In this document: positions 26,331 to 61,574 of the stretch, one piece after another
How positions within the stretch are numbered: the first letter of the stretch is position 1
Layout of the letters: every line of letters starts with the position of its first letter
Assembly (NCBI GenBank): GCA_012269595.1
Contig: JAAXJX010000050.1
Span: 1,612 to 63,185 of the forward strand
Direction of reading: 5' to 3'
Origin: Planctomycetia bacterium
Lineage (GTDB): Bacteria; Planctomycetota; UBA8108; UBA1146
DNA: 61,574 nucleotides
Program-made: the position numbers and the translations under genes
The notes under the pieces: generated by a model
What the model was told of the DNA's origin: nothing
Databases searched by the model: none
The model's input: the letters and a program-made list of their open reading frames with translations, nothing else

Positions 26331-28775
26331 ATGGGGACGCAGAGATTCCCGGTAATCCTGATCGGTTTCCTGGGGGCCATGCTTTTGGCCACTGCTCCCG
26401 TGATTGCCCAGTCAGGGAATGAGACCTGTTCCTCTCCGGGCACGATCTTTGGCGGTGAGACGGGGACTCCCGTTTCGATTTCCGATTCGATCCAGATCAA
26501 CGACAGCCTGATTATCGAAGACCTGCACGTTCGGGTGGACATCAGCCATGGCTTTGTTGCCGATCTGCTCGTCGATCTGAATTCTCCGGCGGGCACGACT
26601 CTCCGGCTTCATGACGGCCTGGGAGGGGATCTCGATGATCTGCGGGTCATCTTCAGTGATGATGGCGTGGCCAACGGGGCGGTGACCTATGACTTCGGCT
26701 GTTACATGCAGCCATCGAACGGCCCCTTGAGTCTCTTCAGCGGTCAGAATACCCAAGGGCTGTGGACCTTGAACGTGCAGGATGATTTTCCGGCCAACAG
26801 TGATGGAGTCCTCAACAGCTGGTGCCTGCGATTCTTCAACTCGCCCGTCTCGGTTTTGCCGGCTGTGCAAAACTTTGCCTGCACTCCCACTCAGGACGGG
26901 GCTGCACTGTCCTGGGATAATCCCCAGGCCTACGGCTCCATCGAACTGACGGTCAACGGAACCGTGTTGTCATTACCGGGAAGCACGACGACTCACACCA
27001 TCAGTGGAGTTGCACCGGGAACCCTGCTGGAGATCTCTGTTGTTGGTGCATTGGCACTTCCCGGGCAATCGGTTTCCTGTGCGGAAGTCTGTGCTGTGAC
27101 CACCCTGAATGGCCCCCCGACCCAGGTGGCGGTGACCATCGATGAACAGTACGACGACTGGAGTGGGGTTACGCCGCTTCAGGATCCGGTCGGCGATGCG
27201 GTTCCCGGCGGCCACGATCTGCTGTCCCTTTCCGTGGCCGATGATGATGAGTCCCTGTTTCTTCGTTTCGATTTTGCCGGGCCGGAGGTGCAGCTCGATG
27301 AAGGGGACACACTGATTCTCTACATCGATACGGATGCCAATCCCAATACGGGGCTGGCCATCTCCGGGATCGGTGCCGAGGTGGAATGGGACTTTGGGGC
27401 CAGGCAGGGAACGGTGAGATCCGGGGGAGCGACCTTTCCGATCAGCCATGCGGATGTGGGCCTCGTCGCCGCACCCACTGTCTCTGGCACCGAGTTTGAA
27501 CTCAGCCTTCGCAGAAACTCGCCACTGATCTCACTGGGATCGGAGGTTCGGGTACTGCTGTGTGACGACCGACCCGGGGGAGATTGTCTTCCCGATTCAG
27601 GTGGCCTCTTTCACCCGCTGGCTCTGGGCCAATTGCCTCCGGATGCTGAGATCCCTCTGACCCGGGAGCAGGCATCAGATCTGCGGATCGTCAGTTACAA
27701 CGTCCTCACCGATAACCCGTGGCAAGGGCAGGGGAATCGGATTGGCCGACAGTTGGCGGCAGTGGCAGCGGACATTTACTGTTTTCAGGAGATCTACAAT
27801 CACACACCGGTTGAAACCGCTTCTTATGTGAGTTCATGGGTGAGCCCCAGCGGCGGCGGGAACTGGTTCAGTGCCGGTCAGTCCGACTGCATCTTTGTCA
27901 GCCGCTTCCCGATTTTGCAAACCTGGGCCCTGTCGGGGAACAGTGCGGCGTGGATCGATACCTCCAGTGAGTGGGGGGTACCGACGATGGTGATCAACGC
28001 CCACCTTCCCTGCTGTGCCAACGAATCGGGCCGGCAGAACGAATGTGATCAGATTGCCGCGTTCATCCGTGACCAGCGTTTGGCAGGGCTGCTTTCGACC
28101 CACCCGGAGGCGGCGGTGCTGATTCTGGGGGACATGAATTTTGTTGGCGAATCCCGTCAGCGGACGACCCTGTTGACCGGTGACATTCTCGACGAGACCC
28201 AATGGGGCTGGGACTACCCCATGGATTCGGATGGATCCGATCTCATCGATACCAAATCGCGTCATGTCGCCAAACGTCAGACCTACACCTGGCGCAACGA
28301 CAACGGCAGCTACTCCCCCGGTTATCTGGATTACATCATCTATTCCGATGCGGTTCTGGAACTGGGGCGTCATTTTGTGCTCCTGACCGATGAGATGTCG
28401 AACAGCTCACTGGTGCAGAATGGACTGCAGTTCGATGATTCCAGCGGGTCAGATCATCTGCTGGTGGCGGCGGATTTCCGCCCTCTGGCAGGTGGAGTGC
28501 TTTTCCGTCGGGGAGATTGCAATGGCGATGGATCTCTCAATATTTCGGATGCGGTCGCTTCCCTGCTCTCCCTCTTCGGCGGAGGGGCTCCTCCCAACTG
28601 TCAGGATGCCTGCGATGCGAACGACGATGGAACGCTGGATGTGTCGGATCCGGTGACGCTGCTGGGAATGCTCTTCTCCGGTTTTGGCGATCTGCCCGCA
28701 CCGGGACCCCAGAACTGTGGAGCAGATCCCACCAGCGATGCACTCGACTGCTCCACCTTCAGCGGTTGTCCCTGA
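26331..28775 (+). CDS. Secreted protein: proprotein-convertase P-domain, FN3-like, DOMON/CBM9-like, endonuclease/exonuclease/phosphatase domain, C-terminal dockerin-like domain
   Basis: P-domain (VDISH..VADL...SPAGT...GLWTL.V.D...G.L.SW); EEP motifs SYNV, FQEI, NAHL, GDMN, LDYI, SDH; tail FRRGDCNGDGSLNISD...DANDDGTLDVSD. Confidence 0.85.
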   Translation: MGTQRFPVILIGFLGAMLLATAPVIAQSGNETCSSPGTIFGGETGTPVSISDSIQINDSLIIEDLHVRVDISHGFVADLLVDLNSPAGTTLRLHDGLGGDLDDLRVIFSDDGVANGAVTYDFGCYMQPSNGPLSLFSGQNTQGLWTLNVQDDFPANSDGVLNSWCLRFFNSPVSVLPAVQNFACTPTQDGAALSWDNPQAYGSIELTVNGTVLSLPGSTTTHTISGVAPGTLLEISVVGALALPGQSVSCAEVCAVTTLNGPPTQVAVTIDEQYDDWSGVTPLQDPVGDAVPGGHDLLSLSVADDDESLFLRFDFAGPEVQLDEGDTLILYIDTDANPNTGLAISGIGAEVEWDFGARQGTVRSGGATFPISHADVGLVAAPTVSGTEFELSLRRNSPLISLGSEVRVLLCDDRPGGDCLPDSGGLFHPLALGQLPPDAEIPLTREQASDLRIVSYNVLTDNPWQGQGNRIGRQLAAVAADIYCFQEIYNHTPVETASYVSSWVSPSGGGNWFSAGQSDCIFVSRFPILQTWALSGNSAAWIDTSSEWGVPTMVINAHLPCCANESGRQNECDQIAAFIRDQRLAGLLSTHPEAAVLILGDMNFVGESRQRTTLLTGDILDETQWGWDYPMDSDGSDLIDTKSRHVAKRQTYTWRNDNGSYSPGYLDYIIYSDAVLELGRHFVLLTDEMSNSSLVQNGLQFDDSSGSDHLLVAADFRPLAGGVLFRRGDCNGDGSLNISDAVASLLSLFGGGAPPNCQDACDANDDGTLDVSDPVTLLGMLFSGFGDLPAPGPQNCGADPTSDALDCSTFSGCP

Positions 28776-28781
28776 TCGAGA

Positions 28782-29865: not shown

Positions 29866-32800
29866 ATGAAGATCTTTTCTGTAACGACATCCTATGTCGT
29901 ATCAAGCCTTGCCGCCTTCAAACGGCTCGGCCTTGTATTCGTGTTTGTATTTGTGTCTATGGGTATGTCCGGCACTCCGCTGACGGCGCAGAACTGTGAA
30001 ACAGGTTCTGAGACGTTGGCTGCATCGGCAACCCATGTGGACAACTCCGGTTCGTGGCTGGTTCGTGGCCAGGGCAGTGAGGTCGAGCTGTTACTCGAAG
30101 ATCAGGGAAGCTGGACATCCTTCCAGACTCTTGATCTGGGATTGCAGACTCTTCATTCGCTGGATCTGGATGGAACCTTGCTTGCCATCGGTCTGGGCAA
30201 TGAGGTCCGCATCCACAGTTATGACGGTACCAGCTGGGTCGAGGAGTTTGCCTTCGGGCCTGCTGATCCAGCAACGAGTTTCGGTCACAGCGTTGCCTTG
30301 TCCGGAAACCGACTGGCTGTGGGAGATCCAAACAGCAATACGATCACTTTCTACACGCGACTCTTCACCAGTGGGCAATCTGCTTCCTGGTTCACGAGTT
30401 CTACCAATACAGGATCTCCCGGAGGAACTCTGGGAGATGAGCTGGAAATGGTAGACGGCTACCTCGCCGCTGCTGACAGATCTCTGGGTTCCATTCAGGT
30501 ATTCGTTCCGGTGGGAAGTCCATCTCTGGAATGGGAAGCGGACTCCAGTCTGGCTCTGTCGAATGTTTCCGGATTCAGCCTCCATTCTTCTGGAGCTCAT
30601 CTGGATCTTTTGGTTCCTTCTGCTTCCGGTGCACAAATTTATCGTCGCGCTGGAGCCGGTTGGGATTTGCAGAGTGATTTGTCTTTCACTCCAGGAGCCA
30701 GACAGTACAGCGTTCTCTCCGCTGACAAGGCCGTCGTGACCACGGACTGTGGTCTGAGGCTCTACTCGCAGGAAGCGGGAGTATGGGATTCAGGTGTGGA
30801 ACTTCGCACTTTGGATGCTGCTGTGGCGTGCATGGACTTGCACGGAGCACAGGATGATTCTCCATTGGCCTTTGGTGATGCCGGAATTTTCCTGAGTACC
30901 GCCTCTGATCTGCGTCTGATTTCCGGATTGACCTACGCCGATTGCAATGGAAACGGATTACCCGATTCCTGTGATCTGGCTGCCGGAACTCCGGACTGCA
31001 ACGGCAATGGAATTCCTGACAGTTGCGACTTCGCCAATGGTGATCAGGATTGCAATGACAACGGCGTGATCGACATTTGTGAGATCAACAACGGATTTGC
31101 CCCTGATTGTAATGGAAATGGGATTCCGGACAGTTGCGACGCTCTCAATGGCGTTCAGTTTGATACCATTCCTCCGGTGATCGCCGGGGTTCCGGAAAAT
31201 CAGGACATTATTCTGAGCCCGGGTGTCTGTGCTGCGATTGCTGATTGGATAGAGCCGACTGCAACCGATATTTGCAGTAACGCCACCATTTCTTCGGATG
31301 TAGCTTTGGGTTCCGAGTTGTTCCCGGGTGTCAATACGATCACCTACACAGCCGAGGATGATCACGGCAACCAGTCCACCGCCAGTTTCACAGTGACGGT
31401 GACAGAGAATATTCCTCCGGTACTGGCGCAGTTGCCGATTGTCCCCGATTTTGCGGCGGACCCTCTGACCTGCACCGCGGTGGCGACCTGGGAAGAGCCG
31501 ACGGCAACGGACATCTGTTCCGATGTGACGATTACATCGAGCCATCCCAATGGGTCTGAGTTCCCCCTGGGAGAAACTCTGGTGGTCTTTACTGCGACGG
31601 ATGTCAGCGGAAACACTGACATCGATGGAATCATCATTCGCGTGGTCGACAACTCTGCACCCGTGATTGAGCAGTTGCCAAATATCGAGGTTTCTGCCCC
31701 CAACACTGCCTGTAATGCGACTGTTGACTGGATTGATCCGGTGATTACCGATTGCACACCAGGTGTGACGGTTACCCAAAATTTCCAGCAGCCCCTGATC
31801 GGCCTGCCGGGTATTCGCAATGTGACCTACACAGCCACAGATGCGAATGGTGTGTCATCTGCGATGACCTTTACGGTCAATATTGTTGACGATACTCCGC
31901 CGACTCTGGTGGGTTTGCCTGCGGATATGGTCCTTAACACTGACCCGGGTGCCTGTGGTGCCACGGTTCTTTGGGATCCGCCGACCGTGGTCGATAACTG
32001 CGATCTTGAACTGGAGCCTGTCAGTAACTTCGATCCTCCCTCCACCTTTGGTGTGGGTGTGACGACCGTGGTTTACACGGCCATCGACCCTTCCGGTAAC
32101 GAGAGGGTGGGTTCTTTCACGGTGACCGTGAATGACCTGGATATTCCTGTCTTCGTCAGTACCCCTGGACCGGTCTCTGCAGCGACCAGTACTACAGACT
32201 GTTCTGAGCCGGTGACCTGGAATCCGCCGGTGGCCGTCGACTGCTCCGCCAACCTCACCTACACCGCTTCTCATGATCCGGGAACCCCCTTCCCGTTGGG
32301 AACCACGGATGTCACTTACGAGGTTTCTGATCTTTCTGGCTTCTCGTCGACGATTACTTTCCCTGTGACGGTGACCGATGGATTCGGCCCGGAATTCCTG
32401 GGAGTGCCTGCAGACATCACTCAAGCGGTGACACCGGGTGAGTGCAGTTCTCTGGTGACATGGATCGAACCGACAGCTACTGATTCCTGTGGAACCTCCA
32501 CGATCAGTGGTTCCCATGCACCGGATACCGTCTTCCCTGTAGGAGTGACCCCGGTGACATACACGGCGATTGATGACAGTGGCAATGTCAGCACCGCGAC
32601 CTTCAATGTGACCGTGACCGATGGAAATGCACCAGCATTCAGCTCGGTGGTGGCCGATCAAAGTGCCACTGCTGCCATCGGAATCTGCCAGGCCCAGATC
32701 TTCTGGGATGAGCCTACAGCCACTGACGACTGTGCTGATGTTGTCATCACATCGTCCCATGCTTCCGGATCTTTCTTTGACAAGGGAGTCACGACGGTGA

Positions 32801-35800: not shown

Positions 35801-36795
35801 GCAACTTGCCCGAAAATGTGATTTTGACCAATGACTTCGATTCCTGTGGAGCAATCCATTCATGGGTTGAGCCGACCATTGAGGACTGCAGTGATCTGAT
35901 GCCCATCAGCATTTCTCACAGCAGTGGCACATTCTTTGAGCCGGGTATCACTGAAGTCTCTTACTCTGCGACCGATTTCTACGGTAACTCCACAACACAG
36001 AGCTTCACGGTCAATGTTGTTGACAAGGATGGTCCCCAGTTCCTGAACGTGGTTTCCTACGTTGAGTTGAACAACTATCCCGGTCTTTGCGGCGCAAATG
36101 CGTTCTGGCCAGAGCCGACGGTGGTCGACAACTGTGAAGTATCCAGTCTGCAGTCCACCGTTGAGCAGGGTGATTTCCTGCCGTTGGGTGAAACAGTGGT
36201 CAACTACGTGGCCATCGACAGTGAAGGCAATGCCAATACGGCCTCGATCACGATCAATGTCATCGACAATGAGGCGCCGCAGGTAATCAACCTTCCGGCT
36301 CACATCTTCGCCGAGCCGGATCCGTCAACCTGTACAGCGATCGTGACCTGGCAGGCTCCGGAAATCTCCGACAACTGCGACGGCGGCACGATCACCAGTT
36401 CGCATGAATCTGGAACAGAGTTTGAGGTAGGAACGCACACCGTGACCGTCATCGCGACCGACGCAGTTGGATTTGTGACGGAAGTCAGCTTCCAGGTCAC
36501 GGTCAATGAGTGCGGAGTGTCCTTCATTCGCGGTGACACCAACAATGACGGTGCCTACGACATCTCTGACGCGATTGGAATCCTCCAGTACATCTTTGGC
36601 GGGGCCATGACCGATCCGACCTGTCTCGATTCGCTGGATGAGAATGACGACGGCATGATCTCGATTGCGGATGCGATTTACCACTTCTCCCACCTCTTCT
36701 CGGGTGGTCCTGCTCCGGCAGCACCTTTCGACAGTTGTGGAGTCGACATGACTGCTGATGATCTGGGTTGCGAGAGCTACGGCGTCTGCCCCTGA
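29866..36795 (+). CDS. Giant secreted protein: degenerate FG-GAP propeller, 4 DCNxNGxxDxC repeats, 22 HYR domains, C-terminal dockerin-like domain
   Basis: Signal peptide; FGHSVALSGNRLAVG; repeats of about 80 aa D..P...C...W.EP...DC...SG..FP.G.T.VTYTATD..GN...F.V.V (22 counted); tail FIRGDTNNDG..DISD...DENDDG.I.IAD. Confidence 0.9.
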   Translation: MKIFSVTTSYVVSSLAAFKRLGLVFVFVFVSMGMSGTPLTAQNCETGSETLAASATHVDNSGSWLVRGQGSEVELLLEDQGSWTSFQTLDLGLQTLHSLDLDGTLLAIGLGNEVRIHSYDGTSWVEEFAFGPADPATSFGHSVALSGNRLAVGDPNSNTITFYTRLFTSGQSASWFTSSTNTGSPGGTLGDELEMVDGYLAAADRSLGSIQVFVPVGSPSLEWEADSSLALSNVSGFSLHSSGAHLDLLVPSASGAQIYRRAGAGWDLQSDLSFTPGARQYSVLSADKAVVTTDCGLRLYSQEAGVWDSGVELRTLDAAVACMDLHGAQDDSPLAFGDAGIFLSTASDLRLISGLTYADCNGNGLPDSCDLAAGTPDCNGNGIPDSCDFANGDQDCNDNGVIDICEINNGFAPDCNGNGIPDSCDALNGVQFDTIPPVIAGVPENQDIILSPGVCAAIADWIEPTATDICSNATISSDVALGSELFPGVNTITYTAEDDHGNQSTASFTVTVTENIPPVLAQLPIVPDFAADPLTCTAVATWEEPTATDICSDVTITSSHPNGSEFPLGETLVVFTATDVSGNTDIDGIIIRVVDNSAPVIEQLPNIEVSAPNTACNATVDWIDPVITDCTPGVTVTQNFQQPLIGLPGIRNVTYTATDANGVSSAMTFTVNIVDDTPPTLVGLPADMVLNTDPGACGATVLWDPPTVVDNCDLELEPVSNFDPPSTFGVGVTTVVYTAIDPSGNERVGSFTVTVNDLDIPVFVSTPGPVSAATSTTDCSEPVTWNPPVAVDCSANLTYTASHDPGTPFPLGTTDVTYEVSDLSGFSSTITFPVTVTDGFGPEFLGVPADITQAVTPGECSSLVTWIEPTATDSCGTSTISGSHAPDTVFPVGVTPVTYTAIDDSGNVSTATFNVTVTDGNAPAFSSVVADQSATAAIGICQAQIFWDEPTATDDCADVVITSSHASGSFFDKGVTTVTYTASDGGGEVDQFSFNVTVTDVEAPSLLNMPADITVGNVPGACANTVFWLTPTAFDHCEPVGFAASHVPGTSFPVGQTEVTYTSTDSSGNTASASFMILVEDRDAPTFVDTLPSLTTVIDPGTCGAVVTWAEPLALDACDAELTITSNHQSGDIFQVGSTLVTYTATDDFNNSTSLFFNVVVEDNEGPTIVGIPQSFTAGVDEGVCGATVTWQEPAPLDCQSMTVQKSHDNPAFLPLGDTTVTYIVTDASGNATTDSFVITVVDDRAPTFTAFPENISVSNDPGTCEAIVTWEPLQTSDPCSTSSFTLSHESGSVFPQGVTTVTATAVDLSGNSRQQSFTVSVLDGESPILLEAPSDPVFVGNSTQECDAVANWTVPSFIDNCGGAVTVTSNHQPGDIFPVGETLVSYSALDADLNETTHSFTVIVLDTTDPTVEQLPETVHVSTPVDSCSATVTWPEPVATDCGQVTATSDFANGAELGIGSHIITYTFSDDSGNSTMGSFLVVVSDGENPTISNVPQDVTVTNTTSMCGVNVIWSEPSTSDCTFSSMTASHSPGDLFSTGVTEVQYTSTDTEGNQSTASFLVTVLDGESPQIIDMPTDITVTADLGSCQAAATWGDPQAIDCVSADLASSHLSGSLFDIGTTEVIYTATDTAGNSSQASFHVTVIDQEAPQIANMPDTVIVQNSPGLCTGVAIWSEPSGTDCSGIASITPSISSGSEFPVGTTTVFYSVIDNSGLESVASFLVEVQDTEAPTILNLPGTVTVSNIAGNCSGPATWETPSTEDCSGSFITSDYSSGQMFALGSTTVTYTAMDEWGNSSQSSFEVIVEDTESPFFTNLPATMTFSSTLGTCEGLATWPMPTAADLCSAAADVTVTSSHDSGSVFAIGDHTVVFTATDASGNEHAQLVTISIIDIEPPTISDMPTDLVGTALIGECGVPMSWNPPATSDCSDVTLTSTFSSGDLIPIGLNTITYTATDSAGNSSSSSFFINVADAEAPTISNLPENVILTNDFDSCGAIHSWVEPTIEDCSDLMPISISHSSGTFFEPGITEVSYSATDFYGNSTTQSFTVNVVDKDGPQFLNVVSYVELNNYPGLCGANAFWPEPTVVDNCEVSSLQSTVEQGDFLPLGETVVNYVAIDSEGNANTASITINVIDNEAPQVINLPAHIFAEPDPSTCTAIVTWQAPEISDNCDGGTITSSHESGTEFEVGTHTVTVIATDAVGFVTEVSFQVTVNECGVSFIRGDTNNDGAYDISDAIGILQYIFGGAMTDPTCLDSLDENDDGMISIADAIYHFSHLFSGGPAPAAPFDSCGVDMTADDLGCESYGVCP

Positions 36796-40956: not shown

Positions 40957-42204
40957 ATGCTTCGATCGATGATGATCATGCTGACCATTGCAATGGCAGT
41001 TTCTTTTGTGCCTGCAGTTGCTATTGCGGGCGGTAGTGCATTTCAGTTCAGCCTGACTGGCGGTGCCGGTGCAGCAGGTGACAGCTTCACCTCTTCTGCA
41101 CTTTTGGACAACGCCGGTGGTGGAGACATTCAGGGTTGGTCCTTCGGTGTCTGCAGTGACCCTGCAGCCCTGACCGTAGACGGAGCCGCCAGCGGTGCCG
41201 ACACGGAGACCTCCAAGAACGGATCTGCTCCTGACTTCAACCAGATCAGTACTTTTGCTGACGGTGCCACCCAGGGTGTGGTTCTCTGTTTCACCGGCTG
41301 TGCCGTGATCGGAGACACCTCCGGTTTCGAGATGCTGACGATCGATTACACGATCGCCGGTTCCTCTGACACCACCATCGACTACTGCGGAACCCTGGGA
41401 GCTCCCCCGGTGAACACCGTGGTCGTGGTTGGCGGAGCCAGCCTTGCTCCCGCTACCAGTGGTGGATTGATCGACGTGATCAACCCGAACCAGTTGAGCG
41501 CCTCCAGTGGAACTGCCGTCCTCGGTGACGCCGCTTCCACCACCGTGAGCTTCAATAACGTCAACTACCCGGCCATCGACGCCGTTCAGATCAACCTTGG
41601 ATACGACAACACCGTCGTTTCCCCGGCTTCTGTCGACGCCGATTTCGCCTTCGAGACCTTCCTGGTTCAGGACTTCACCGGCAATGGCGGTGAGATTGTT
41701 GTTGGCGGCCTTGCTGACATCACTCCTCCCCTGGACGGACTGATTCCGGCCGGTGCCTCCACCGACCTCTTCACCGTGACCTGGAACACCGACGGCGAGG
41801 GTACCTCCGCCATGACCTTCCCGGCCACCGCAGGTAGCCCGGCTCAGGATCTTCTCTTCGTTGCTGGTCAGTCCAGCCTGGAGACCCCGACCCTGATCGA
41901 CGGTTCCCTGACCGTGGTGAACTTCAACCAGTTCCTGCGTTCCGACTGCAACAATGACGGAACCGTCAACATTGCTGACGGTGTTTACGGTATCAACTAC
42001 CTCTTCCAGGGTGGTGCTGATCCGGTCTGTGACGACGCCTGTGACTCCAATGACGACGGTGCCATCGACGCCGCCGACATGATCTACATCTTCAACTACC
42101 GCTTCCTTGAGGGCCCGGCTCCGCTGGCACCCTTCCCGAGTGCGGACCTCGACCCGACCCCGGGCGACGGACTGGGATGTGACGGCGACGCCGACGATCT
42201 GTAG
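40957..42204 (+). CDS. Secreted protein with two cohesin-like domains and a C-terminal dockerin-like domain
   Basis: AAAGGA RBS; signal peptide; domain 1 LDN...IQGWSFGVCSD..L; domain 2 VSFNN...IDAVQINLGYD...LFTVTW...DGSLTV; tail FLRSDCNNDGTVNIAD...DSNDDGAIDAAD. Confidence 0.75.
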   Translation: MLRSMMIMLTIAMAVSFVPAVAIAGGSAFQFSLTGGAGAAGDSFTSSALLDNAGGGDIQGWSFGVCSDPAALTVDGAASGADTETSKNGSAPDFNQISTFADGATQGVVLCFTGCAVIGDTSGFEMLTIDYTIAGSSDTTIDYCGTLGAPPVNTVVVVGGASLAPATSGGLIDVINPNQLSASSGTAVLGDAASTTVSFNNVNYPAIDAVQINLGYDNTVVSPASVDADFAFETFLVQDFTGNGGEIVVGGLADITPPLDGLIPAGASTDLFTVTWNTDGEGTSAMTFPATAGSPAQDLLFVAGQSSLETPTLIDGSLTVVNFNQFLRSDCNNDGTVNIADGVYGINYLFQGGADPVCDDACDSNDDGAIDAADMIYIFNYRFLEGPAPLAPFPSADLDPTPGDGLGCDGDADDL

Positions 42205-47843: not shown

Positions 47844-47855
47844 TCCTGTTTCAGG

Positions 47856-48882: not shown

Positions 48883-49122
48883 ATGACCAGTCATGCAGAA
48901 AGCGGTTTGAAAGTGATCGCCGTCTCTCTCGGCAAGGGAAAAGTCGCCTGGAAGGTCGACTTTCCACCAGTGGGACGCAAGGATTCACGCCTGAAGGGCC
49001 AATGGGAATCTCTCGAGGAAGCTTTGACGGTCCTCAAAAAATCCTGCGATAAATCGCAAGTAGACCCTGAAACGGCCTCAATGGCCGATGAGCACTGTCC
49101 AGATACTCCCTGGGCGAGCTGA
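48883..49122 (+). CDS. Small hypothetical protein (79 aa)
   Basis: Strong GGGAGGAG RBS 7 nt before ATG 48883; fills the gap between the divergent HAD gene and pckA. Confidence 0.55.
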   Translation: MTSHAESGLKVIAVSLGKGKVAWKVDFPPVGRKDSRLKGQWESLEEALTVLKKSCDKSQVDPETASMADEHCPDTPWAS

Positions 49123-49348
49123 CCAAAACTGGGCGGATTCACTCGCAAGAGCGGTCATCCTTGGGGAAAATAAATGGATATCGGAGAGCCGCTCTTGCCG
49201 GAATTGCCCCGCTCAAACGGGGAAACAGGTATTCTGCGGTTGAGTTGAAGTCGTTCCCGCCCGGGCCTGTTGAGTCTGGAACGGGATCATTGCCAGAGGA
49301 TCCCTTCAAAGAGGTCGATCCCTGCCAAGAGGAAGGTAAAGGAGAGGC

Positions 49349-50908: not shown

Positions 50909-50937
50909 AATGGTGTCCCGTCCGATAGGAACGACGG

Positions 50938-53974: not shown

Positions 53975-54762
53975 TGGTTTCTTCAGAACTTCAGGGGAGC
54001 TCCTGGATTCTTACCCGGCCGGCGGAGCGATCCGCACCCTGGGCAAACTTTCTGGAGAATCATGGAGCGCAAGTCCATTGTGACCCGGTACTCCAATTGA
54101 GCCCGGTCAAGGGAGAGATCGACTGGGAGCCGGTCGGCTCCGCTTCCATGTGGGTCTTTTCCAGTGCGACCACCGTTCGGCATTTCTTTTCGCTGTTGCC
54201 CGACTCTTTGTCCTCCTCCTTGATCAAAGAAGAGAAACCGTTGTTTGCCGCTGTTGGCGACGCCACCGCTGAAGCGATCAGGGCCGCAGGCCAGTCGGTC
54301 ACCTGTCAGGGGCCCGGGACAGGGGCGGATGATCTCGTTCGGATCATTCTCTCGGGACCGAAGGTGGACTCAGCGGTCCACGTGACCAGCGATGCCGGCT
54401 TGCCGGTGATTCAACAGGGCCTGTCTGACGGAGGCATCCCGTGTGAGCGGGTGGAGGTCAGTGAATCGACTCGGGTTCCCGATCTGGATATTTCCCGCTG
54501 GAAAAGCCTCCGCGAAAATTGGAGTGGGATTGTCTACAGCAGCCCAGCCACCGTGGAGGGGGTTTTGGCCCAATCCGGGCCTTTGGCCGACTGGGTTCGG
54601 GCGATTCCCGGGATTGCAGTCGGGGTGAGAACCGCTGAGGCTATGCGGTCTGCCGGGATCCTGCAGCGACATGTCGCCGCCTCGGCGGACCTCGAAGGGC
54701 TCTATGAGGTGTGCGTTTCAGCGATTTCTGCTGGTAACATGGGGCCCAACCTGAAAGATTGA
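53971..54762 (+). CDS. hemD: Uroporphyrinogen-III synthase
   Basis: LTRP, VFSS, AVGDATA, YSSP, AVG.RTA; located after hemC. Confidence 0.85.
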   Translation: MMVSSELQGSSWILTRPAERSAPWANFLENHGAQVHCDPVLQLSPVKGEIDWEPVGSASMWVFSSATTVRHFFSLLPDSLSSSLIKEEKPLFAAVGDATAEAIRAAGQSVTCQGPGTGADDLVRIILSGPKVDSAVHVTSDAGLPVIQQGLSDGGIPCERVEVSESTRVPDLDISRWKSLRENWSGIVYSSPATVEGVLAQSGPLADWVRAIPGIAVGVRTAEAMRSAGILQRHVAASADLEGLYEVCVSAISAGNMGPNLKD

Positions 54763-54807
54763 TGGGGCAGACCTCCCGCCGGGGGGGCTGGGGAAAGGGA
54801 TAGACTC

Positions 54808-55845
54808 TTGGATCTTGAAAACTCACTTCTGATTCGCAAACTTCGCCGACAGCCCACCGAGAGAACTCCGGTCTGGTTCATGCGTCAGGCAGGAAGATAC
54901 CTGCCCGGCTACCAGCGGATTCGCAAGGGGATGAATTTCCTCGATCTGTGCAAGGATCCTGATCTTGCCGCGGAAGTCACCGTCGAACCCCTGGAAGTTC
55001 TGAATGTGGATGCCGTGATCATCTTCAGCGACATTCTCGTGCCCCTGGAGGCAATGGGACTGGGCGTGGAATTTGGTGATCGTGGACCCTGCATGTCGGA
55101 TCCTCTGAGCAGCCGTGCAGACATCGATGCTCTGCGAGTCCCGGATCCGGTAGCAGAAACCGGATTTGTGATGGACGTCATCCGAACCGTTCACCGCCAT
55201 GTCAATGGGCGGGTTCCTGTCCTCGGCTTTGCGGGGGCTCCCTGGACCCTGACCTGTTATGCCCTTGAAGGGTCCCCCAGCAGAACTTTCGCCGCTGCCC
55301 AGAGGATGCTCTATGAATCTCCGGCGGATGTGCATGTCCTGATGGAAAAGATTGCCGATACGGTCACCGAATACCTCAAGGCTCAGATCGCCGCGGGGGC
55401 CAACGCCGTGCAGCTTTTCGATTCGTGGGGAGGAATGCTCTCCCACCAGGCCTTCGATGAGTTCTCTCTCCATTATTGCCGCAGAATCCTCGAAGGACTC
55501 GACGGTTGTGGTGTTCCGCGAATTCTCTTTATTCGCGGTGCTGGCAGCCACCTTGAAAAGATCGCCCGCATGGTCGATGAGGTCGGAGTCGAGGCTGTTG
55601 GCCTCGATGAAATGATTCCGCCGGAGCAGGCGATCCGGGTCTTTGGAGATCGTTGTGCCCTGCAGGGCAATCTCCCCCCGCAGGCCCTGTTTGCTCCCCA
55701 GGAGGATCTGCTCCAGAGAGTCCGCAACCTGCAAGAGGCGTTCAAGGATCATCCGGGGCACGTCTTCAATCTGGGGCATGGAATCCTGCCTCCGACTCCT
55801 GTGCCAAATGTGCAGGCGGTGGTTCGGGAGATCCGTGGGGAGTGA
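54808..55845 (+). CDS. hemE: Uroporphyrinogen decarboxylase
   Basis: PVWFMRQAGRYLP, IFSDIL, GFAGAPWTL, QLFDSW, QGNL.P, FNLGHGI. Confidence 0.97.
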   Translation: MDLENSLLIRKLRRQPTERTPVWFMRQAGRYLPGYQRIRKGMNFLDLCKDPDLAAEVTVEPLEVLNVDAVIIFSDILVPLEAMGLGVEFGDRGPCMSDPLSSRADIDALRVPDPVAETGFVMDVIRTVHRHVNGRVPVLGFAGAPWTLTCYALEGSPSRTFAAAQRMLYESPADVHVLMEKIADTVTEYLKAQIAAGANAVQLFDSWGGMLSHQAFDEFSLHYCRRILEGLDGCGVPRILFIRGAGSHLEKIARMVDEVGVEAVGLDEMIPPEQAIRVFGDRCALQGNLPPQALFAPQEDLLQRVRNLQEAFKDHPGHVFNLGHGILPPTPVPNVQAVVREIRGE

Positions 55846-57202
55846 TCCCCGCCGACGGATTGCTGTCATCGGTGGGGGGATCGCAGGTCTCTCTGCTGCC
55901 TGGCGACTTCGGCAAGCCGGTGTTGAAGTGGTGCTCTTCGAGTCCTCTTCCAGGCCGGGAGGCTGGATTCGCACCACTGAGCGGGAGGGTTTTTTGCTCG
56001 AATGGGGCCCCCATTCGGTGCTCCCCTCCAGTCCCAGGCTGATCCAACTCGCTGAGGAAGCGGGAATCTCCGATTCATGGACGAGTGCTGCTGGAGCAGC
56101 CCGACGCAGATATGTCTATCGGGCCGGGAAGGCCCGGGCTCTTCCCGGTTCGCCTTTCGGGATTCCTTTTTCGACGGCTCTCAGCCCCCTCGGATGGTTG
56201 AGGGTTCTCAGCGAACCTTTCCGTTCCAATGGGGGATCAGAAGAGGAATCGGTGAAGGACTTTTTCCAAAGGAGGCTGGGGGCGGAAGCTGCCCGGATTC
56301 TCGCCGATGCCATGGTAGCGGGCATCAGTGGCGGAGTGCCGGAGGATCTGGAGATGGCCTCTTTCGCTCCGGCAGTTGCAGAGATGGAGCGCAAACACGG
56401 GAGCCTGTTCAAGGGTTTGATTTCGAGATCGAGGCCGAAAGGGGTTCCCTTCCGGGGCACCGGAACCCTGAAAAGCGGAATGCAGTCTCTTCCGGAAGCA
56501 CTTGCCCGAGGGCTCGGAGAAGCCTACCAAGGAAGTAATACCGTCACCGAAATGTACCGGGAAAATCACCGCTGGAATTTGTCGGTGGAGGGGGCGTACA
56601 GCGGGGATACGGCTGGCTTTGATGGCGTAATCCTGGCGACCCCCTCAGCGGTCTCTGCAAAATTGGCCCGTCCTCATAATTTACGCCTCAGTGGCCTACT
56701 GGAATCAATTTCATACGCTTCCATGGTGCTCGTACAAATCGCATACGATGCCTCAAAGTGCCGTTTCAAGCCGGATGGCTTCGGTTTCCTCGTTCCCCGT
56801 CAGCAATCCCTGCAGATACTCGGAGCGATCTGGTCCTCTTCCATTTTCCCCTGGAGGGCTCCCTCCGGAAGGGATCTGGCGACCATATTCATGGGTGGAA
56901 CCCGTGACCCCCTCCTGGGTGAGAGGTCCGATGAAGAGATCCTCGAAAGAGCGATTCCGGACATGCAACGGGTCCACGGTAGCGGGTTCGATGCTGATTG
57001 GTGTGAGGTCGGACGGGCCCCCGTGGCGATTCCCCAAGCTCGCAGAGGCCATGGTCGAAAAGTGTACGCCCTCCGCAACGAGTGCTCCCTCCTGGATGGC
57101 CTCGAGCTCGCAGGAGGCTATCTCGATGGCATCTCGCTGGAGAACTGTGCTCGATCGGGCCAGTGGGCTGCAGAGAGATTGCTTCAGGAAACCGGTTCCT
57201 GA
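55835..57202 (+). CDS. hemY: HemY-type protoporphyrinogen/coproporphyrinogen oxidase
   Basis: GTG start with GGGAG RBS; IGGGIAGL.AA, GGWIRT, EWGP, E..HGSL..G, GFGFLVP, SS.FP.RAP. Confidence 0.92.
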   Translation: MGSDPRRRIAVIGGGIAGLSAAWRLRQAGVEVVLFESSSRPGGWIRTTEREGFLLEWGPHSVLPSSPRLIQLAEEAGISDSWTSAAGAARRRYVYRAGKARALPGSPFGIPFSTALSPLGWLRVLSEPFRSNGGSEEESVKDFFQRRLGAEAARILADAMVAGISGGVPEDLEMASFAPAVAEMERKHGSLFKGLISRSRPKGVPFRGTGTLKSGMQSLPEALARGLGEAYQGSNTVTEMYRENHRWNLSVEGAYSGDTAGFDGVILATPSAVSAKLARPHNLRLSGLLESISYASMVLVQIAYDASKCRFKPDGFGFLVPRQQSLQILGAIWSSSIFPWRAPSGRDLATIFMGGTRDPLLGERSDEEILERAIPDMQRVHGSGFDADWCEVGRAPVAIPQARRGHGRKVYALRNECSLLDGLELAGGYLDGISLENCARSGQWAAERLLQETGS

Positions 57203-57698
57203 GGATCACTGGGGGCGTTCCTTACCCCGTTCCGCCACAAAAGAAGTGAAAAGAACCGCCGGAATCACGGTGGTTTGAAATCACCGGTTTGAGTGGGGGC
57301 ATGCAAGTCTTTTATGACAGGTGATGTTCGTCACTCGATAAAAAACCGGAAACGATTTCCGAATCCTGCCTCCCCCAAACAGCGTGCCCAAAAAAACTTT
57401 CAATAATCAGCCTTCAACGGATAACCACCCTAGGCAGATTGCCGCTCAGGGATAAATTAGAGCCACTCTTCCAAAAACAATTCGGCCGGGAATCCCATCC
57501 CTCAGGGCATGCAATCCATCCCTGGCTGTGGCATCAGCAACAGCCCCCTGTCACTTCGGTGACTCTGCATCTCCTGCTTTCTTGGAGTTTCGGCCGTCCC
57601 AGACAAGTCAAACCCTGTTGTTTACCGGATCGGGCTTTCCCCGGTCCTGAATACACCCTTTGCGACCTGCGTTTTGCAGGTTTATTGGAGGTCAACCC

Positions 57699-60600
57699 AT
57701 GAAGACGTCTCCCCTCGCCTTCCTGGTGTTTGTGATTCACCTTGTTGCGGTCACCACTTTTGTGGGTGCCCAGTGCGACCCTGTTGTCGACTGCAACGGG
57801 AATGGAGTCTTGGACAGTTGCGATATCGCTGATCACAACAGCGACGATTGCGACGGTGATGGCATTCCTGATGAGTGCCAGATCAGCTCTGACCCGAGCC
57901 TGGACTGCAACCAGGATCTGATCCTCGATGCTTGCGAGAGCAGCCTCGAGCAGATCCTGAATGGTTCCGGATCGGATTATGGCAAGGGCCTGGACATGAC
58001 GTCCAACTGGCTCGCCATAGGAGCACCGAATCATTCGACCGGAGGAAACTCCGTCGGCGCTGTCCATCTTTACCGCAATATCGGTAGTAGCTGGGTTTCT
58101 GCAGGAATGCTGCAGGCACCATCTCTCTCTGATGGAGCAGAGTTCGGCTACAGCGTTGCGATCACGGATGACCTTCTCGTGGTTGGAGCGCCGGGGACCG
58201 ACAGCATCAGCAACTCCGATGAGGGTGCCGCCTACATCTACCGCAGAAGTGGCCTGAACTGGATTCTTGAACAGGTTCTTGAGCCTGCAGGAAGCAACAG
58301 TGACGCCGAGTTTGGTATCTCCGTTGATGTCGACGGCGAGCGTGTGGCTGTCGGTGCATGGTACGCATTGACCACCAGTGATTCCGGCAGTGTCTACCTT
58401 TACAGCAATGATGGAAACGGTTGGAACCTCGACCAGTTGATCGAATCCCCCGATTCCAGTGGAGACAAGCACTTCGGAGCTTCTATTGAGCTTTCGGGCG
58501 ATTTTGTTGCCGTTTCCGATCCGCGTGCGGATGCCGGGCCGGTCGATGACGCCGGTGCTGTCTACATCTACAGGGCATTCAATGCGAGCCTCTGGGCGTT
58601 TTCACAGAAGATCACCTCTTCTTCGCCTGTCGATGGAGGCAAGTTTGGTTACTCCATCGATTTGCAGGATGGCCAGCTTTTTGTGGGTGCTCCCAACAGT
58701 GGATCTGATGCCCGGGGAGAGGCGCATCTGTTCACTCTTGGCGGCAGCATCTTCAGTTTTGAGATTGCTTTCACCGGTCTTTCCTCCAACTCAAACCTTG
58801 GACAGGACGTGGCAGTTGCCGACGGTGGCCTTGCTGCCGGTGCCTGGAAAGCCAATGGAAATCTGGGGCAAGTCCTCGTTTTCCAGAAAGACGCCAACGG
58901 AACTTACCAGTTTGAATCCTTTGATCCCCAGGGAGCACAGAGCGGAGACCGCTTTGGTGAGCGTGTTGCCGCGGGTGGACGTTGGATTGCCGGAGCCAGT
59001 TTGGTCGATTCATACGTGGCTCTCGATCGACTGATCGATCTGCCCGACTGTGATGAAAACGGTGTCGATGATCCCTGTGACATTTTCCTCGGAAATTCCC
59101 AGGACTGTAATCAGGACGGTAAACCTGACTCCTGCCAGATTGCTGATGGAGAAGTCTCCGATTGCAACCTGGACGGGATTCCCGATTCCTGCCAGTTGGA
59201 TGACGGCTCTGAGCCCGACTGCAACCTCAACGGTGTGATCGACTCCTGCGATATCGACTTTGGAACCTCTGACGACTGTAACCACAACCAGATTCCCGAC
59301 GATTGTGAATCTGACTGTAACCAGAACGACATCGAGGACAGTTGCGAAATCGCAGCAGGAACCGCTGCGGACTGCAACTCCAACGGACTTCTCGACGAGT
59401 GTGATTTGATTGCAGGAACCGATACGGACTGCAACAACAACTCGATTCTTGACGGTTGTGAAATTGCCGACGGCAATGCCACGGACTGTGATGAAAATGG
59501 AATTTTGGACGTTTGCGATATCCTGCTGGATTTCAACAACGACTGTAACTCCAACCAGATTCTCGACTCCTGCGAGATCGCCAACGGCACGGCCTTTGAC
59601 TGTAACAACAACAGCAAGCCGGATATCTGCGACGTTGCATTCGGTATTTCACCGGATTGTGACAATGACCTGATTCCCGACGAGTGCGAGTTGCAGGATG
59701 GCAGTGAGCCGGACTGTAACGGCAACAACATTCCCGACTCCTGCGATATTCTTGCGGGAATCGAGCAGGACTGCGAAGGAAACGGTATCCCGGACACCTG
59801 TGACGTTGCCAATGGTGCTCTGGACTGTAATGAAAACAATGTCCCCGACGTTTGCGAAGTGGATGTTGATACCCAGCTGCCGACCTTCGAAGGCCTGAGT
59901 GGTGACCTTTCCATCAGTGCTCTCGAGGGAAGCTGCGAAGCACCGGCAACATGGTCTGAGCCGACCGTCACGGATGATTGTGGCGTCGCTTCTGTTGTCA
60001 GCAGTCACACCTCCGGAGATTCTTTCCCGGTGGGTGACACTCTGGTGACCTACACGGCCACCGATGTCAGCGGCAACGTGAACACGGCCTCCTTCACGGT
60101 GACCATCACCGATGATCAGTTGCCTTCCATTGCCAACGGCCCCACGGACATCTCTGTCTCCAACGATGCCGGCACATGTCAGGCTGTGGTGAGCTGGGAT
60201 GAGCCGAGCGCCGCAGACAACTGTGGAATCGCTGATCTTTCCAGCAACCATTCCGCCACCGATTCTTTCCCTGTGGGAACGACCACGGTGACCTACACCG
60301 CAACGGATGTGAATGGCAACCAGACGACCCATTCCTTCAACGTCACTGTTTCTGACGACGATCTTCCGGCGATCCACGGACTGCCCGGACCCGTCTTTGT
60401 GAACAGTAACCCCGGGTTCTGTACCGCAGCAGTCAGCTGGCCGGCACCGACCTTCTCCGACAACTGTGACGATGTCACCGTCGATGTGAATTATCAGTCC
60501 GGTTCCGCATTCACGGTGGGTGTCACCCTGGTGACCTACACTGTCACCGACGCGGCCGGAAACGTTGCCGAGGCCTCCTTCGAGTTGACCGTTCTGGACA

Positions 60601-61574
60601 ACGAACTGCCGACCATCACCAATGTTCCGGCAGACGTGGTCCTCAACAATGATGAAGACCTTTGTGGTGCTGCCTACGTCTGGGAAGAGCCGGCTCTTTC
60701 CGACAACTGCGGTGCACCTGCGCTGACCTCCAGCCTCCAGTCGGGACACGTCTTCCCCGTTGGAACGACCTTCGTCAGCCTGACCGTAGACGACGGAAAC
60801 TCCAACCTTGTGGAGACCGGATTCACCGTCACCGTTGTCGATAACACCTCTCCCCTGATCTCCAGAATGCCCGCTGATATCGTCATCGAGGCTGATCAGG
60901 GTGGCTGTGACACTCTCGTCGAGTGGGAAGAGCCAGAGGCTGCCGACAACTGCGGAGTTTCTACCCTCGTCGCCAACAATGTCCCGGGAGTCTACGCCGT
61001 CGGAACCACGGAAGTGGTCTACACGGCTCAGGATATTCACGGCAACATCACCCTTGAGTCTTTCACTGTGACAGTGGTCGACAGTCAGTCGCCGGAGCTT
61101 TCCGGTCTGCCCGTTGATCTTTCCACCGATAACCTTTTGGGTCTTTGTGGCGCAAACCTTGCCTGGCCTGAGCCGAGTGCCGCAGACAACTGTGGCGTGG
61201 ATAGCATCGAATCCACCCATTCCCCGGGTGACGAGTTCCCTGTGGGAATCACGACCGTCATTTACACGGTGACTGATATCAACGGTAACGTGACCAATGA
61301 GTCGTTCCAGGTGACCATTCACGACGTGGACGCTCCTGAGATCGACAACATGCCCGCCGACATCACCACGACCAATGACGAAGGTGACTGTGGCGCACTG
61401 GTCAGCTGGGCTGAGCCGGTGGCATGGGACAACTGTGAAGTGATCGAACTCGTCTCGAGCCATGAGAATGGCGGATTCTTCCCGGTGGGCACCACTGAGG
61501 TGACCTACACCGCGAAAGATGACTCCGATCTGGAGTACAGCGAGTCCTTCCTGATCACCGTTTCCGACGACGAA
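57699..61574 (+). CDS. Giant secreted protein, 3' end truncated: DCNxNG repeats, FG-GAP propeller, 15 further DCNxNG repeats, at least 7 HYR domains
   Basis: Absent from the ORF track because it has no stop in the window. GGAGG RBS; MKTSPLAFLVFVIHLVAVTTFVGAQ signal; FGYSVAI..LLVVGAP...GAAYIY blades; HYR units from about 59868. Confidence 0.9.
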   Translation, partial: MKTSPLAFLVFVIHLVAVTTFVGAQCDPVVDCNGNGVLDSCDIADHNSDDCDGDGIPDECQISSDPSLDCNQDLILDACESSLEQILNGSGSDYGKGLDMTSNWLAIGAPNHSTGGNSVGAVHLYRNIGSSWVSAGMLQAPSLSDGAEFGYSVAITDDLLVVGAPGTDSISNSDEGAAYIYRRSGLNWILEQVLEPAGSNSDAEFGISVDVDGERVAVGAWYALTTSDSGSVYLYSNDGNGWNLDQLIESPDSSGDKHFGASIELSGDFVAVSDPRADAGPVDDAGAVYIYRAFNASLWAFSQKITSSSPVDGGKFGYSIDLQDGQLFVGAPNSGSDARGEAHLFTLGGSIFSFEIAFTGLSSNSNLGQDVAVADGGLAAGAWKANGNLGQVLVFQKDANGTYQFESFDPQGAQSGDRFGERVAAGGRWIAGASLVDSYVALDRLIDLPDCDENGVDDPCDIFLGNSQDCNQDGKPDSCQIADGEVSDCNLDGIPDSCQLDDGSEPDCNLNGVIDSCDIDFGTSDDCNHNQIPDDCESDCNQNDIEDSCEIAAGTAADCNSNGLLDECDLIAGTDTDCNNNSILDGCEIADGNATDCDENGILDVCDILLDFNNDCNSNQILDSCEIANGTAFDCNNNSKPDICDVAFGISPDCDNDLIPDECELQDGSEPDCNGNNIPDSCDILAGIEQDCEGNGIPDTCDVANGALDCNENNVPDVCEVDVDTQLPTFEGLSGDLSISALEGSCEAPATWSEPTVTDDCGVASVVSSHTSGDSFPVGDTLVTYTATDVSGNVNTASFTVTITDDQLPSIANGPTDISVSNDAGTCQAVVSWDEPSAADNCGIADLSSNHSATDSFPVGTTTVTYTATDVNGNQTTHSFNVTVSDDDLPAIHGLPGPVFVNSNPGFCTAAVSWPAPTFSDNCDDVTVDVNYQSGSAFTVGVTLVTYTVTDAAGNVAEASFELTVLDNELPTITNVPADVVLNNDEDLCGAAYVWEEPALSDNCGAPALTSSLQSGHVFPVGTTFVSLTVDDGNSNLVETGFTVTVVDNTSPLISRMPADIVIEADQGGCDTLVEWEEPEAADNCGVSTLVANNVPGVYAVGTTEVVYTAQDIHGNITLESFTVTVVDSQSPELSGLPVDLSTDNLLGLCGANLAWPEPSAADNCGVDSIESTHSPGDEFPVGITTVIYTVTDINGNVTNESFQVTIHDVDAPEIDNMPADITTTNDEGDCGALVSWAEPVAWDNCEVIELVSSHENGGFFPVGTTEVTYTAKDDSDLEYSESFLITVSDDE
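59046..59855 (+). repeat. Tandem array of 15 coding repeats (mostly 57 bp) encoding DC(N/D)x(N/D)xxxDxC
   Basis: Direct translation: DCDENGVDDPC, DCNQDGKPDSC, DCNLDGIPDSC ... DCNENNVPDVC, mostly at a 19-aa period. Confidence 0.9.

Follow-up and report, generated by a model that had tools for sequence, protein, structure and literature searches.

The window analysed here is the whole stretch of 61,574 nucleotides at G000:C50:1612-63185, taken from a planctomycete genome of 2,817,642 bp (60 contigs, 93% complete, 1.25% contaminated). Three of its genes, P0001, P0002 and P0003, encode secreted proteins that end in one and the same tail. By its fold and its sequence signature, this tail is a dockerin-type docking module. 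It recurs throughout the genome, in 118 open reading frames (ORFs) with 119 modules in all, next to 81 cohesin-like modules in 50 ORFs, and it is fairly probable that the tails serve as dockerins in a hierarchical, genome-wide cohesin-dockerin network. The genes of the window are a sample of this dispersed family. The initial annotation had pictured a local assembly of three or four genes, a picture that does not hold against such numbers.

Sequence and fold of the tail

The last ~98 residues of P0001, P0002 and P0003 are 41-44% identical and have 27 invariant columns in their alignment. The shared motif reads F.RGD.N.DG...[IL][AS]D, helix, C.DA.D.NDDG....D, helix, P.AP.P.CG.DPT.D.L.C. Outside the tail, the three bodies have no Pfam family common to all. 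The alignment and the Pfam content of the bodies agree with the initial annotation, which described three unrelated secreted proteins sharing an end module of ~90 residues and suggested a genome-wide profile search as a check. A profile from the three tails, run against all six-frame ORFs of the genome at a domain expectation value (E) <1e-5, finds 115 further ORFs in the same genome, and the tail match is therefore not a product of chance.

The Pfam family Dockerin_1 (PF00404, type I-like, cut-off 22.9 bits) matches all three tails, with E values from 8e-7 to 1e-3. Only the P0003 tail lies above the cut-off at 29.6 bits, while the P0001 and P0002 tails score 20.3 and 19.7 bits. Across the genome, Dockerin_1 yields 63 matches at E<=0.01, and 32 of them exceed the cut-off. 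NCBIfam has no model for the three tails; its sole match is a chance-level hit to the CelK equivalog (E 0.018).

Both calcium loops of the tail are 12 residues long, and each is followed by a hydrophobic helix that ends in LF.GG. In the 119 modules, the first loop has D14 in 110, N16 in 96, D18 in 106, D or N at position 22 in 111, and D25 in 119. The second loop has D47 in 116, N49 in 100, D51 in 102, D or N at position 55 in 106, and D58 in 119.

An AlphaFold2 model of the P0001 tail, made from the alignment of the 119 paralogues, has a predicted local distance difference test score (pLDDT) of 90 and a predicted template modelling score (pTM) of 0.82, with helices at residues 27-38 and 61-72. 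In the Foldseek list for this model, rows 1-28 contain nothing but dockerin chains; their TMt values run from 0.52 to 0.83, with 26 at 0.69-0.83, and the root-mean-square deviations (rmsd) are 1.6-3.4 Å. Their E values, 3e-3 to 1.6, are weak because the domain is small. A search of the tail profile against PDB gives 32 matches, of which 30 are dockerin-bearing chains (best E 9e-9), and the alignments all end by about profile position 76. The loops, the model, the Foldseek list and the PDB search together bear out the earlier description of a duplicated calcium-loop dockerin with a Cys-containing extension. Identity with the C-terminal domain (CTD) of the type IX secretion system (T9SS) or with PEP-CTERM was considered and rejected: the tail has the helical fold of a dockerin and not a beta-sandwich, and there is no C-terminal transmembrane helix. 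The tail consensus likewise has no terminal hydrophobic helix.

The extension that follows the dockerin core is read as lineage-specific and comprises ~25-30 residues with the consensus P.AP.P.CG.DPT.D.L.C....CP. It is modelled as ordered in the P0001 tail (pLDDT 78-91), and the same stretch has low confidence in the model of whole P0003, which is built on a shallower alignment. Among the 119 modules, the conserved cysteines lie in column 42 (116), column 91 (105) and column 80 (86). A terminal cysteine is usual, and an optional pair at columns 15 and 46 is present 28 times each. The model predicts that the extension packs on the dockerin core, and it is probably disulfide-stapled; the conserved cysteines would then staple it onto that core. 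By parity reasoning, the predicted bonds would join column 42 to 91, column 80 to the terminal Cys and, in modules that have them, 15 to 46.

Cohesins, candidate anchors and cargo

Ahead of its tail, the 40957 protein (P0003) has two domains that were first annotated as cohesin-like, and both prove to have the cohesin fold. One of the two refuting cases named in the initial annotation, domains without this fold, therefore does not apply. The AlphaFold2 model of P0003, from a 37-row alignment, has a pLDDT of 84, with two beta-sandwiches above 90. The best VIA match for residues 176-323 is the type I cohesin 6kgc_A (Z 17.9, rmsd 1.9 Å over 134 residues), and for residues 25-175 it is the R. flavefaciens ScaB cohesin 5m2o_A (Z 13.7, rmsd 2.6 Å over 132 residues). 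Cohesins fill the first 40 rows of the VIA list, and the entries after them, at Z ~10-11, belong to a CLIPPER adhesin domain, pilins and antigen I/II adhesins. In Pfam, P0003 scores 31 bits for Cohesin (PF00963), above the cut-off of 24.1 bits.

Since Pfam Cohesin gave only five weak matches in the genome, the census was made with a profile iterated from the two P0003 domains until it converged. The 81 modules are found by this profile at E 1e-15 to 1e-43. When 78 of them are made into a profile and compared with PDB, six out of six matches are cohesin scaffoldins (best E 4e-6). The structure models cover the two P0003 domains, and the other 79 modules are defined by the sequence profile. In the cohesin tree, the first and the second position of the dyads are occupied by cohesins of different clades, a sign that their specificities may differ.

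With Coh for the cohesin and Doc for the tail, the architectures are Doc only (73 ORFs), Coh-Doc (21), Coh-Coh-Doc (16), Coh-Coh-Coh-Doc (7), Doc-Coh-Doc (1), Coh only (4) and Coh-Coh only (1). The tail is present in 45 of the 50 cohesin ORFs. Modules cover at least 75% of the length in 28 of these 45, which are pure adaptor-type scaffoldins of 280-630 aa and include P0003, where they account for 94%. The remaining 17 Coh-Doc ORFs also carry other, mostly unassigned, sequence. Scaffoldins with several cohesins are found beside cohesin proteins without a dockerin, a combination that is also a mark of cellulosomes. Counted from stop to stop, the tail ORFs amount to 84,168 codons, or ~9% of the genome. 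A hydrophobic, signal-peptide-like N-terminus is assigned to 114 of the 118 by a hydrophobicity heuristic.

Some of the tail genes stand together. At G000:C59:86-22487 (L140, L141) there are ten consecutive genes on the same strand, all tail-bearing: nine encode Coh2-Doc or Coh3-Doc scaffoldins, and one encodes a protein of 1682 aa with Big_5, FG-GAP, cohesin, TIG and tail. This cluster looks like a recent tandem duplication. Smaller clusters lie at C4:55465-63681, C7:19901-43884 and C15:19568-38495. The genome's only double-dockerin protein, of 362 aa and composed of signal peptide-Doc-Coh-Doc, is encoded at G000:C15:32530-33654 (L096:13002-14087). In the tree of tails, those of cohesin-bearing proteins cluster moderately (23 label changes; in shuffled trees the mean is 36.6 and the minimum 27), and tandem duplication such as that of the C59 cluster could be the source. 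Residue frequencies at the helix positions of the tail give no clean specificity signature.

Five cohesin ORFs have no tail. Two of them encode He_PIG lipoproteins, one encodes a PKD-repeat protein, and two are truncated by contig ends; of this last pair, one is a close paralogue of a Coh3-Doc protein. The PKD-repeat protein is N-terminally truncated and has 15 PKD domains with a terminal cohesin. The two lipoproteins are encoded by adjacent genes on contig C29 (L146). They have 1002 and 484 aa, lipobox-like LSGC and LGGC signal peptides, seven and three immunoglobulin-like He_PIG repeats, respectively, and a single cohesin at the very C-terminus. Orthologues of the genus (G006), the family (G011 and G012) and the order (G025) keep both the lipobox and the end without a tail. 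Because they end in a cohesin, have no tail and conserve the lipobox, the two lipoproteins are, judging from sequence, candidates for membrane-anchoring scaffoldins. The bases of the assembly are likely lipoproteins encoded outside the window. Their cohesins form no clade of their own in the cohesin tree, so that tree shows no separate anchor 'type' of cohesin.

Lipobox-like signals are also found on tail-bearing proteins, at L129:885-1745 (-), L117:211-2769 (+), L082:8384-11044 (+) and L141:76-5121 (+). These proteins include one with LAGC followed by an LTD domain (below the Pfam cut-off), one with LIGC followed by Big_5, FG-GAP and cohesin, and an M12B reprolysin-TIG-Coh-Doc protein. Lipid anchoring may not be limited to the tail-less cohesin proteins.

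The cargo was surveyed with Pfam on 116 tail ORFs in two batches (25 and 25 of 32 and 32 families listed), on the window proteins and on ten selected ones. Adhesion and binding domains include FG-GAP in at least nine ORFs, galactose-binding-like domains in seven, P-domains in five (P0001 among them) and LTD in two, together with a legume-type lectin, two beta-helix proteins, a cadherin-like giant and the HYR giants. The peptidases are S8 (2), M4 (2), M12B reprolysin, S9 and trypsin-like. Redox cargo consists of the di-haem peroxidases CCP_MauG (4) and DHOR (2). Other cargo comprises penicillin amidase, endonuclease I, the endonuclease/exonuclease/phosphatase (EEP) domain of P0001, GSDH, esterases (one of them BD-FAE), DUF1800 and one rhamnogalacturonan (RGI)-lyase beta-sheet domain. 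No glycoside hydrolase or cellulase appears in the four proteins of the window or among the families listed, and the Pfam results for the window proteins confirm the non-cellulolytic cargo that had been proposed for them.

Proposed pairing and its alternatives

Tail and cohesin modules are expanded together in one lineage and have almost no matches elsewhere in the phylum sample. The tail is present in 41 of 41 genomes sampled from the organism's own class, nearly all of which have at least 123 matches, and a first look gave as many as 583 candidates per genome (in a genome of 8.6 Mb). In the phylum sample of 121 genomes, the tail is found at E<=1e-10 in nine, five of the organism's own order and four others with one or two matches each. 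The cohesin subfamily is found at E<=1e-8 in six of the 121, the same five genomes of the order and one with a single match. These five stand at the top of the counted range for both modules.

RpoB of the host is 58-61% identical to that of planctomycetes from several classes. In a 16-row RpoB tree, the genome falls within Planctomycetota (support 100) and outside the group formed by Brocadiia, Phycisphaerae and Planctomycetia (support 92), a placement by a single gene with few taxa that is indicative only. The sequence is found in marine and salt-marsh libraries. The host, a marine planctomycete, appears on this small tree to be deep-branching and outside Phycisphaerae. Homologues of P0003 are annotated only as hypothetical proteins and come from Planctomycetota or a marine 'TMED' bin.

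Among 1.84 billion representatives of 50%-identity clusters, the tail profile matches 69,483 at E<=1e-3 and 31,478 at E<=1e-10. Some public proteins have 4-7 whole modules in tandem, extension included, and some have 4-12 matched stretches. P0076, P0085 and P0090 consist of 4-12 tandem dockerin-type modules, which are whole modules in P0076 and P0085; P0085 is a signal peptide with four whole modules and their Cys extension. Such poly-dockerin proteins could cross-link cohesins.

In the proposed network, Sec would export the proteins, and the dockerins would fold in an oxidising compartment, loaded with calcium and stapled by disulfides. The genome has five secretin genes, which could serve export. 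As a first tier, the two lipoproteins with He_PIG stalks and a C-terminal cohesin would tether the system to the membrane. The second tier would consist of ~28 small Coh(1-3)-Doc adaptors, which would dock on the anchors or on each other and so multiply the sites. In the third, ~73 dockerin-only proteins would be displayed on the scaffold, and 17 more would combine Coh-Doc with other sequence. The cargo would form the fourth tier and include peptidases (S8, M4, M12B, S9 and trypsin-like), nucleases (EEP and endonuclease I), di-haem peroxidases, lectin and FG-GAP propellers, and giant HYR adhesins, P0002 and P0005 among them. The likely role of the network is to let a planktonic marine planctomycete with a small genome capture and degrade organic matter that is proteinaceous and rich in nucleic acids.

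Several points weigh against this network. The folds and motifs, the counts and architectures, the lipoboxes, the co-distribution and the presence in RNA libraries were computed directly, whereas the binding of cohesin to tail, the calcium dependence, the hierarchy, the location (cell surface or periplasm) and the physiological role are inferred. The P0001 and P0002 tails fall below the Dockerin_1 cut-off, and only one of the five genome-wide matches to Pfam Cohesin exceeds its own. The count of 81 cohesins comes from an iterated profile, which can drift in principle. Since the relatives are not independent, the shared distribution of tail and cohesin amounts in essence to a single phylogenetic event. 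A lipobox by itself is no proof of a location on the cell surface, and di-haem peroxidases, GSDH and penicillin amidase are typically periplasmic enzymes. A complex prediction for the P0003 cohesin dyad (residues 27-323) with the P0001 tail and two calcium ions scored 0.13 and 0.11 against a mark of 0.32, in a control-free run on what is possibly the wrong pair, and it counts neither for nor against binding.

The RNA libraries add a further reservation. Contigs from four runs of four studies (marine and salt marsh) span the whole P0003 gene at 93-99% identity, which is compatible with expression and is no proof of transcription. These contigs cannot rank expression, and thin cover over the P0004 gene is no sign of silence. 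They begin ~270-360 nt upstream of the P0003 start (about 40598-40690) and stop ~10 nt before the stop codon (42195). Their similar ends hint at transcript ends weakly at best. In one run, 10 nt are deleted at 40803 in the region upstream of P0003.

The position and the end of the tail also speak for a different function. Of the 119 modules, 110 end within 25 residues of the stop codon. Cys-Pro closes 53 of these 110 C-terminal tails, and in another 31 the last or the penultimate residue is Cys, a pattern that looks like a recognition or processing motif. Of the 3152 ORFs in the genome with at least 200 aa, 60 have CP at their end, and the tail is present on 53 of the 60. The extension, ~30 aa long, has no equivalent in solved dockerins in either the Foldseek or the PDB profile search, and NCBIfam is without a model for the tail. 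The module moreover occurs, in the manner of sorting domains, on over 100 secreted proteins that are not related to each other. These features would be expected if the tail were mainly a C-terminal signal for sorting, export or attachment, similar to a T9SS CTD or PEP-CTERM, whose Cys-Pro end is recognised or processed. A dedicated machinery would then read the tail, and the dockerin fold would be no more than the frame of the signal. Such a main function is nonetheless unlikely. Nine modules are not C-terminal, five of them N-terminal directly after the signal peptide and the others internal, and the public proteins with tandem whole modules repeat the extension as well. Both calcium loops are conserved, which a signal would not need, and the matching family of 81 cohesin modules is expanded in the same genomes. 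The helical dockerin fold and the lack of a C-terminal transmembrane helix, noted above, also differ from such signals. The roles of sorting and docking are not mutually exclusive.

It is also conceivable, at a still lower probability, that the two modules do not pair. The tail would then be a calcium-dependent stabilising, self-associating or ligand-binding domain, and the cohesin-like sandwiches would act as spacers or have ligands other than the tail. Many non-cellulosomal dockerins are assumed to act in such ways, and Peer and colleagues are said to have reported in 2009 that non-cellulosomal cohesin-like and dockerin-like modules are widespread without demonstrated partners. Identity to cellulosomal modules is low here (15-22% for the cohesins, 20-33% for the dockerin core), and most modules lie under the Pfam thresholds. 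In contrast, the tail is present on nearly all cohesin ORFs, and both families are expanded in the same lineage. The tail-less cohesins are found on conserved lipoproteins, like those of anchoring scaffoldins. Pairing is favoured because the 28 proteins that contain almost nothing other than cohesin and tail are hard to explain otherwise.

A wider form of the cohesin-dockerin network, which is rather doubtful, would be a class-wide, proteome-scale assembly code. In it, ~9% of the genome would encode one branched, self-assembling, lipoprotein-tethered matrix that displays ~90 enzymes and giant adhesins. Dozens of small Coh(1-3)-Doc proteins would polymerise, and the matrix would use a new, disulfide-stapled subtype of dockerin with a Cys-Pro end, perhaps in the enlarged periplasm of planctomycetes rather than, or besides, on the cell surface. 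Relative to genome size, the number of cohesins would rival or exceed that of the largest cellulosomes, with no cellulase.

Window genes and related systems

The features of the window that bear on the system are collected in the table. The ORFs of P0001, P0002 and P0003 are intact.

Tail-bearing genes of the window with their modules, and P0005 (positions within the window)
Feature	Position	Strand	Content
P0001, cargo, 814 aa	26331..28775	+	signal peptide, P-domain, EEP domain, dockerin-type tail
P0001 tail	28503..28772	+	two Ca-loop/helix repeats and Pro/Cys extension; end ...GCP
P0002, giant adhesin-like cargo, 2309 aa	29866..36795	+	signal peptide, Cys-rich short repeats, HYR, tail
P0002 tail	36523..36792	+	end ...VCP
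P0003, adaptor-type scaffoldin, 415 aa	40957..42204	+	signal peptide, cohesin 1, cohesin 2, tail
P0003 cohesin module 1	41035..41481 (residues 27-175)	+	VIA fold match
P0003 cohesin module 2	41482..41925 (residues 176-323)	+	VIA fold match; Pfam Cohesin above cut-off
P0003 tail	41932..42201	+	15/46 Cys pair; without column-80 and terminal Cys; end ...DADDL
P0005, 5' part	57660..61574 (start 57660/57699)	+	signal peptide, FG-GAP, Cys-rich repeats, HYR domains

P0001 has a proprotein-convertase P-domain at residues 62-168 (P_proprotein, E 7e-12) and an EEP domain at residues 454-709 (Exo_endo_phos, E 1e-11), both in Pfam. P0002 contains 22 HYR domains (Pfam HYR, E 1e-224). The trio of P0001, P0002 and P0003 is syntenic across the genus and in some genomes of the family. 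The span 26331-61574, which the initial annotation had taken for one assembly locus, is not one, because it includes a tail-less gene at 36917-40318 and housekeeping genes at 42295-57202, and most of it is unrelated housekeeping DNA; an operon-like locus is accordingly rejected from the gene content. The gene at 36917-40318 (+) stands between the HYR giant P0002 and the cohesin-dockerin gene P0003, and encodes 1133 aa with DUF7133, a GSDH-like propeller, HEAT repeats and a C-terminal cytochrome c. The genes at 42295-57202 encode an aminotransferase, gamma-glutamyltranspeptidase (GGT), phosphoenolpyruvate carboxykinase (PEPCK), a HAD hydrolase and haem-biosynthesis enzymes.

Two further groups of genes are ordinary housekeeping. 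A catalase-peroxidase-like gene with two peroxidase-domain stretches lies at 22358-24553 (-), and glutamyl-tRNA reductase, porphobilinogen deaminase, uroporphyrinogen synthase and decarboxylase, and an amine-oxidase-type oxidase are encoded at 51684-57202 (+).

P0005 is the fourth giant, and its frame goes on beyond the window, as first noted. A scaffold gap of 100 N (G000:C50:63186-63285) interrupts it just past the last base of the window, and the frame then resumes with 15 more HYR domains up to the contig end at 66950. The 3' end of the gene is unassembled because it runs into this gap and then into the contig end. Whether the gene starting at 57699 ends in the tail had been posed as a check, and its orthologues in the same genus do. 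The one at G005:C31 is 99% identical over the first 534 aa in a frame of 3491 aa, the one at G004:C9 is 69% identical and has 3411 aa, and both finish in ...CP-stop.

Short Cys-rich repeats of the form D-C-N-x-N-G-x-P-D-x-C-[DE] occur in runs in P0002 (~30940-31140, residues ~358-425) and P0005 (~59020-59820, residues ~455-720), and also directly precede the tail in the P0005 orthologues. The repeats of P0002 and P0005 match no Pfam family at E<=0.01, and they may be calcium-binding spacers. An antisense ORF of 604 aa at 59649-61463 (-) and other long antisense ORFs lie inside the HYR genes. These frames are most likely by-products of the repeat composition and not genes.

Planctosome: The proposal mentioned in the initial annotation, a planctosome deduced from genomes of freshwater Planctomycetes, does exist in the literature and is the nearest precedent. 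Andrei et al. 2019 (ISME J; PMC6461901) describe a non-cellulolytic cohesin/dockerin system from genomics only in the freshwater Nemodlikiaceae (CL500-3, Phycisphaerae). As published, it is 'simple', with one anchor (LTD, P-domains, TSP3 and cohesin), one adaptor and two peptidases (PMC6461901). LTD, P-domains, HYR, M12B reprolysin, cohesin and dockerin are all found on tail-bearing proteins in the present genome as well. The scale differs from the published outline, with 118 dockerin ORFs and 81 cohesin-like modules here. The LTD/P-domain/TSP3 anchor of that outline is not among the five tail-less cohesin ORFs, two of which are contig-cut, and both LTD matches sit on tail-bearing proteins. 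The lineage stated there also differs, as the host here is marine and outside Phycisphaerae in the 16-row RpoB tree. A Cys/Pro extension is not mentioned in the main text of the planctosome paper, supplements aside (PMC6461901).

Other genome-based proposals: Ca. Stygibacter (Cloacimonadota; Williams et al. 2021, PMC8542988) is described in the article text with one scaffoldin of 3,755 aa that has tandem cohesins, carbohydrate-binding modules and a T9SS-type CTD as anchor. This cellulosome-like complex resembles the present system, as far as that text goes, in that it is proposed from genomics only, for an aquatic bacterium outside Bacillota, and has peptidases and hydrolases with dockerins held on a scaffold of cohesins. 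It differs from the many small scaffoldins and lipoprotein anchors found here. Limihaloglobus sulfuriphilus, of the PVC superphylum, is also a genome with scaffoldin-like cohesin proteins. According to the text of a cellulosome survey it barely enters the survey's definition, its largest scaffoldin having at most two cohesins, and no expansion of the present size is described in that text (PMC11557425). In the literature on the planctosome and planctomycete dockerins (including PMC6461901, PMC11557425, PMC8542988, PMC11840708 and bioRxiv 10.1101/2023.11.21.568195; subscription journals and supplements aside), we found no description of this scale, the lipoprotein anchors, the class-wide co-expansion or the Cys-Pro extension. 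The idea of a planctomycete cohesin-dockerin complex is not new, while its size, completeness, lineage and dockerin subtype would surprise specialists.

Cellulosomes: The presence of cohesin and dockerin folds, and of a duplicated, near-symmetric dockerin with two calcium loops, resembles the clostridial and ruminococcal cellulosomes (type I-III cohesin-dockerin; solved complexes such as 1ohz, 2ccl, 4uyp and 5m2o). Multi-cohesin scaffoldins, Coh+Doc adaptor scaffoldins and tail-less anchoring scaffoldins are in line with these systems too, and the scale is comparable to that of the largest cellulosome producers. In contrast, the envelope here is of the Gram-negative type, and anchoring would use a lipobox and not SLH or sortase. 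No cellulase or other glycoside hydrolase is among the Pfam families listed here, the dockerin has an extension of ~30 aa of disulfide type that usually ends in Cys-Pro, and the scaffoldins are mostly small (1-3 cohesins) and numerous.

To our knowledge, cohesin-dockerin assembly is established by experiment almost only in anaerobic Gram-positive degraders of plant fibre. Outside these, there are a few genomics-only proposals of small systems. The present genome has 119 dockerins and 81 cohesin-like modules in 2.8 Mb, in a planktonic marine planctomycete, with a complete logic of anchor, adaptor and cargo. The cargo points to the turnover of protein and nucleic acid and to adhesion. The tail family is large and has no model of its own, as Dockerin_1 catches it weakly and NCBIfam not at all. 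Small recombinant modules with clear boundaries would allow a direct test of the hypothesis. If it is true, the lineage would offer protein engineering a large natural library of orthogonal, disulfide-stabilised, seawater-adapted cohesin-dockerin pairs. If the modules pair, they would represent a major, lineage-defining way to organise extracellular (or periplasmic) digestion in the ocean.

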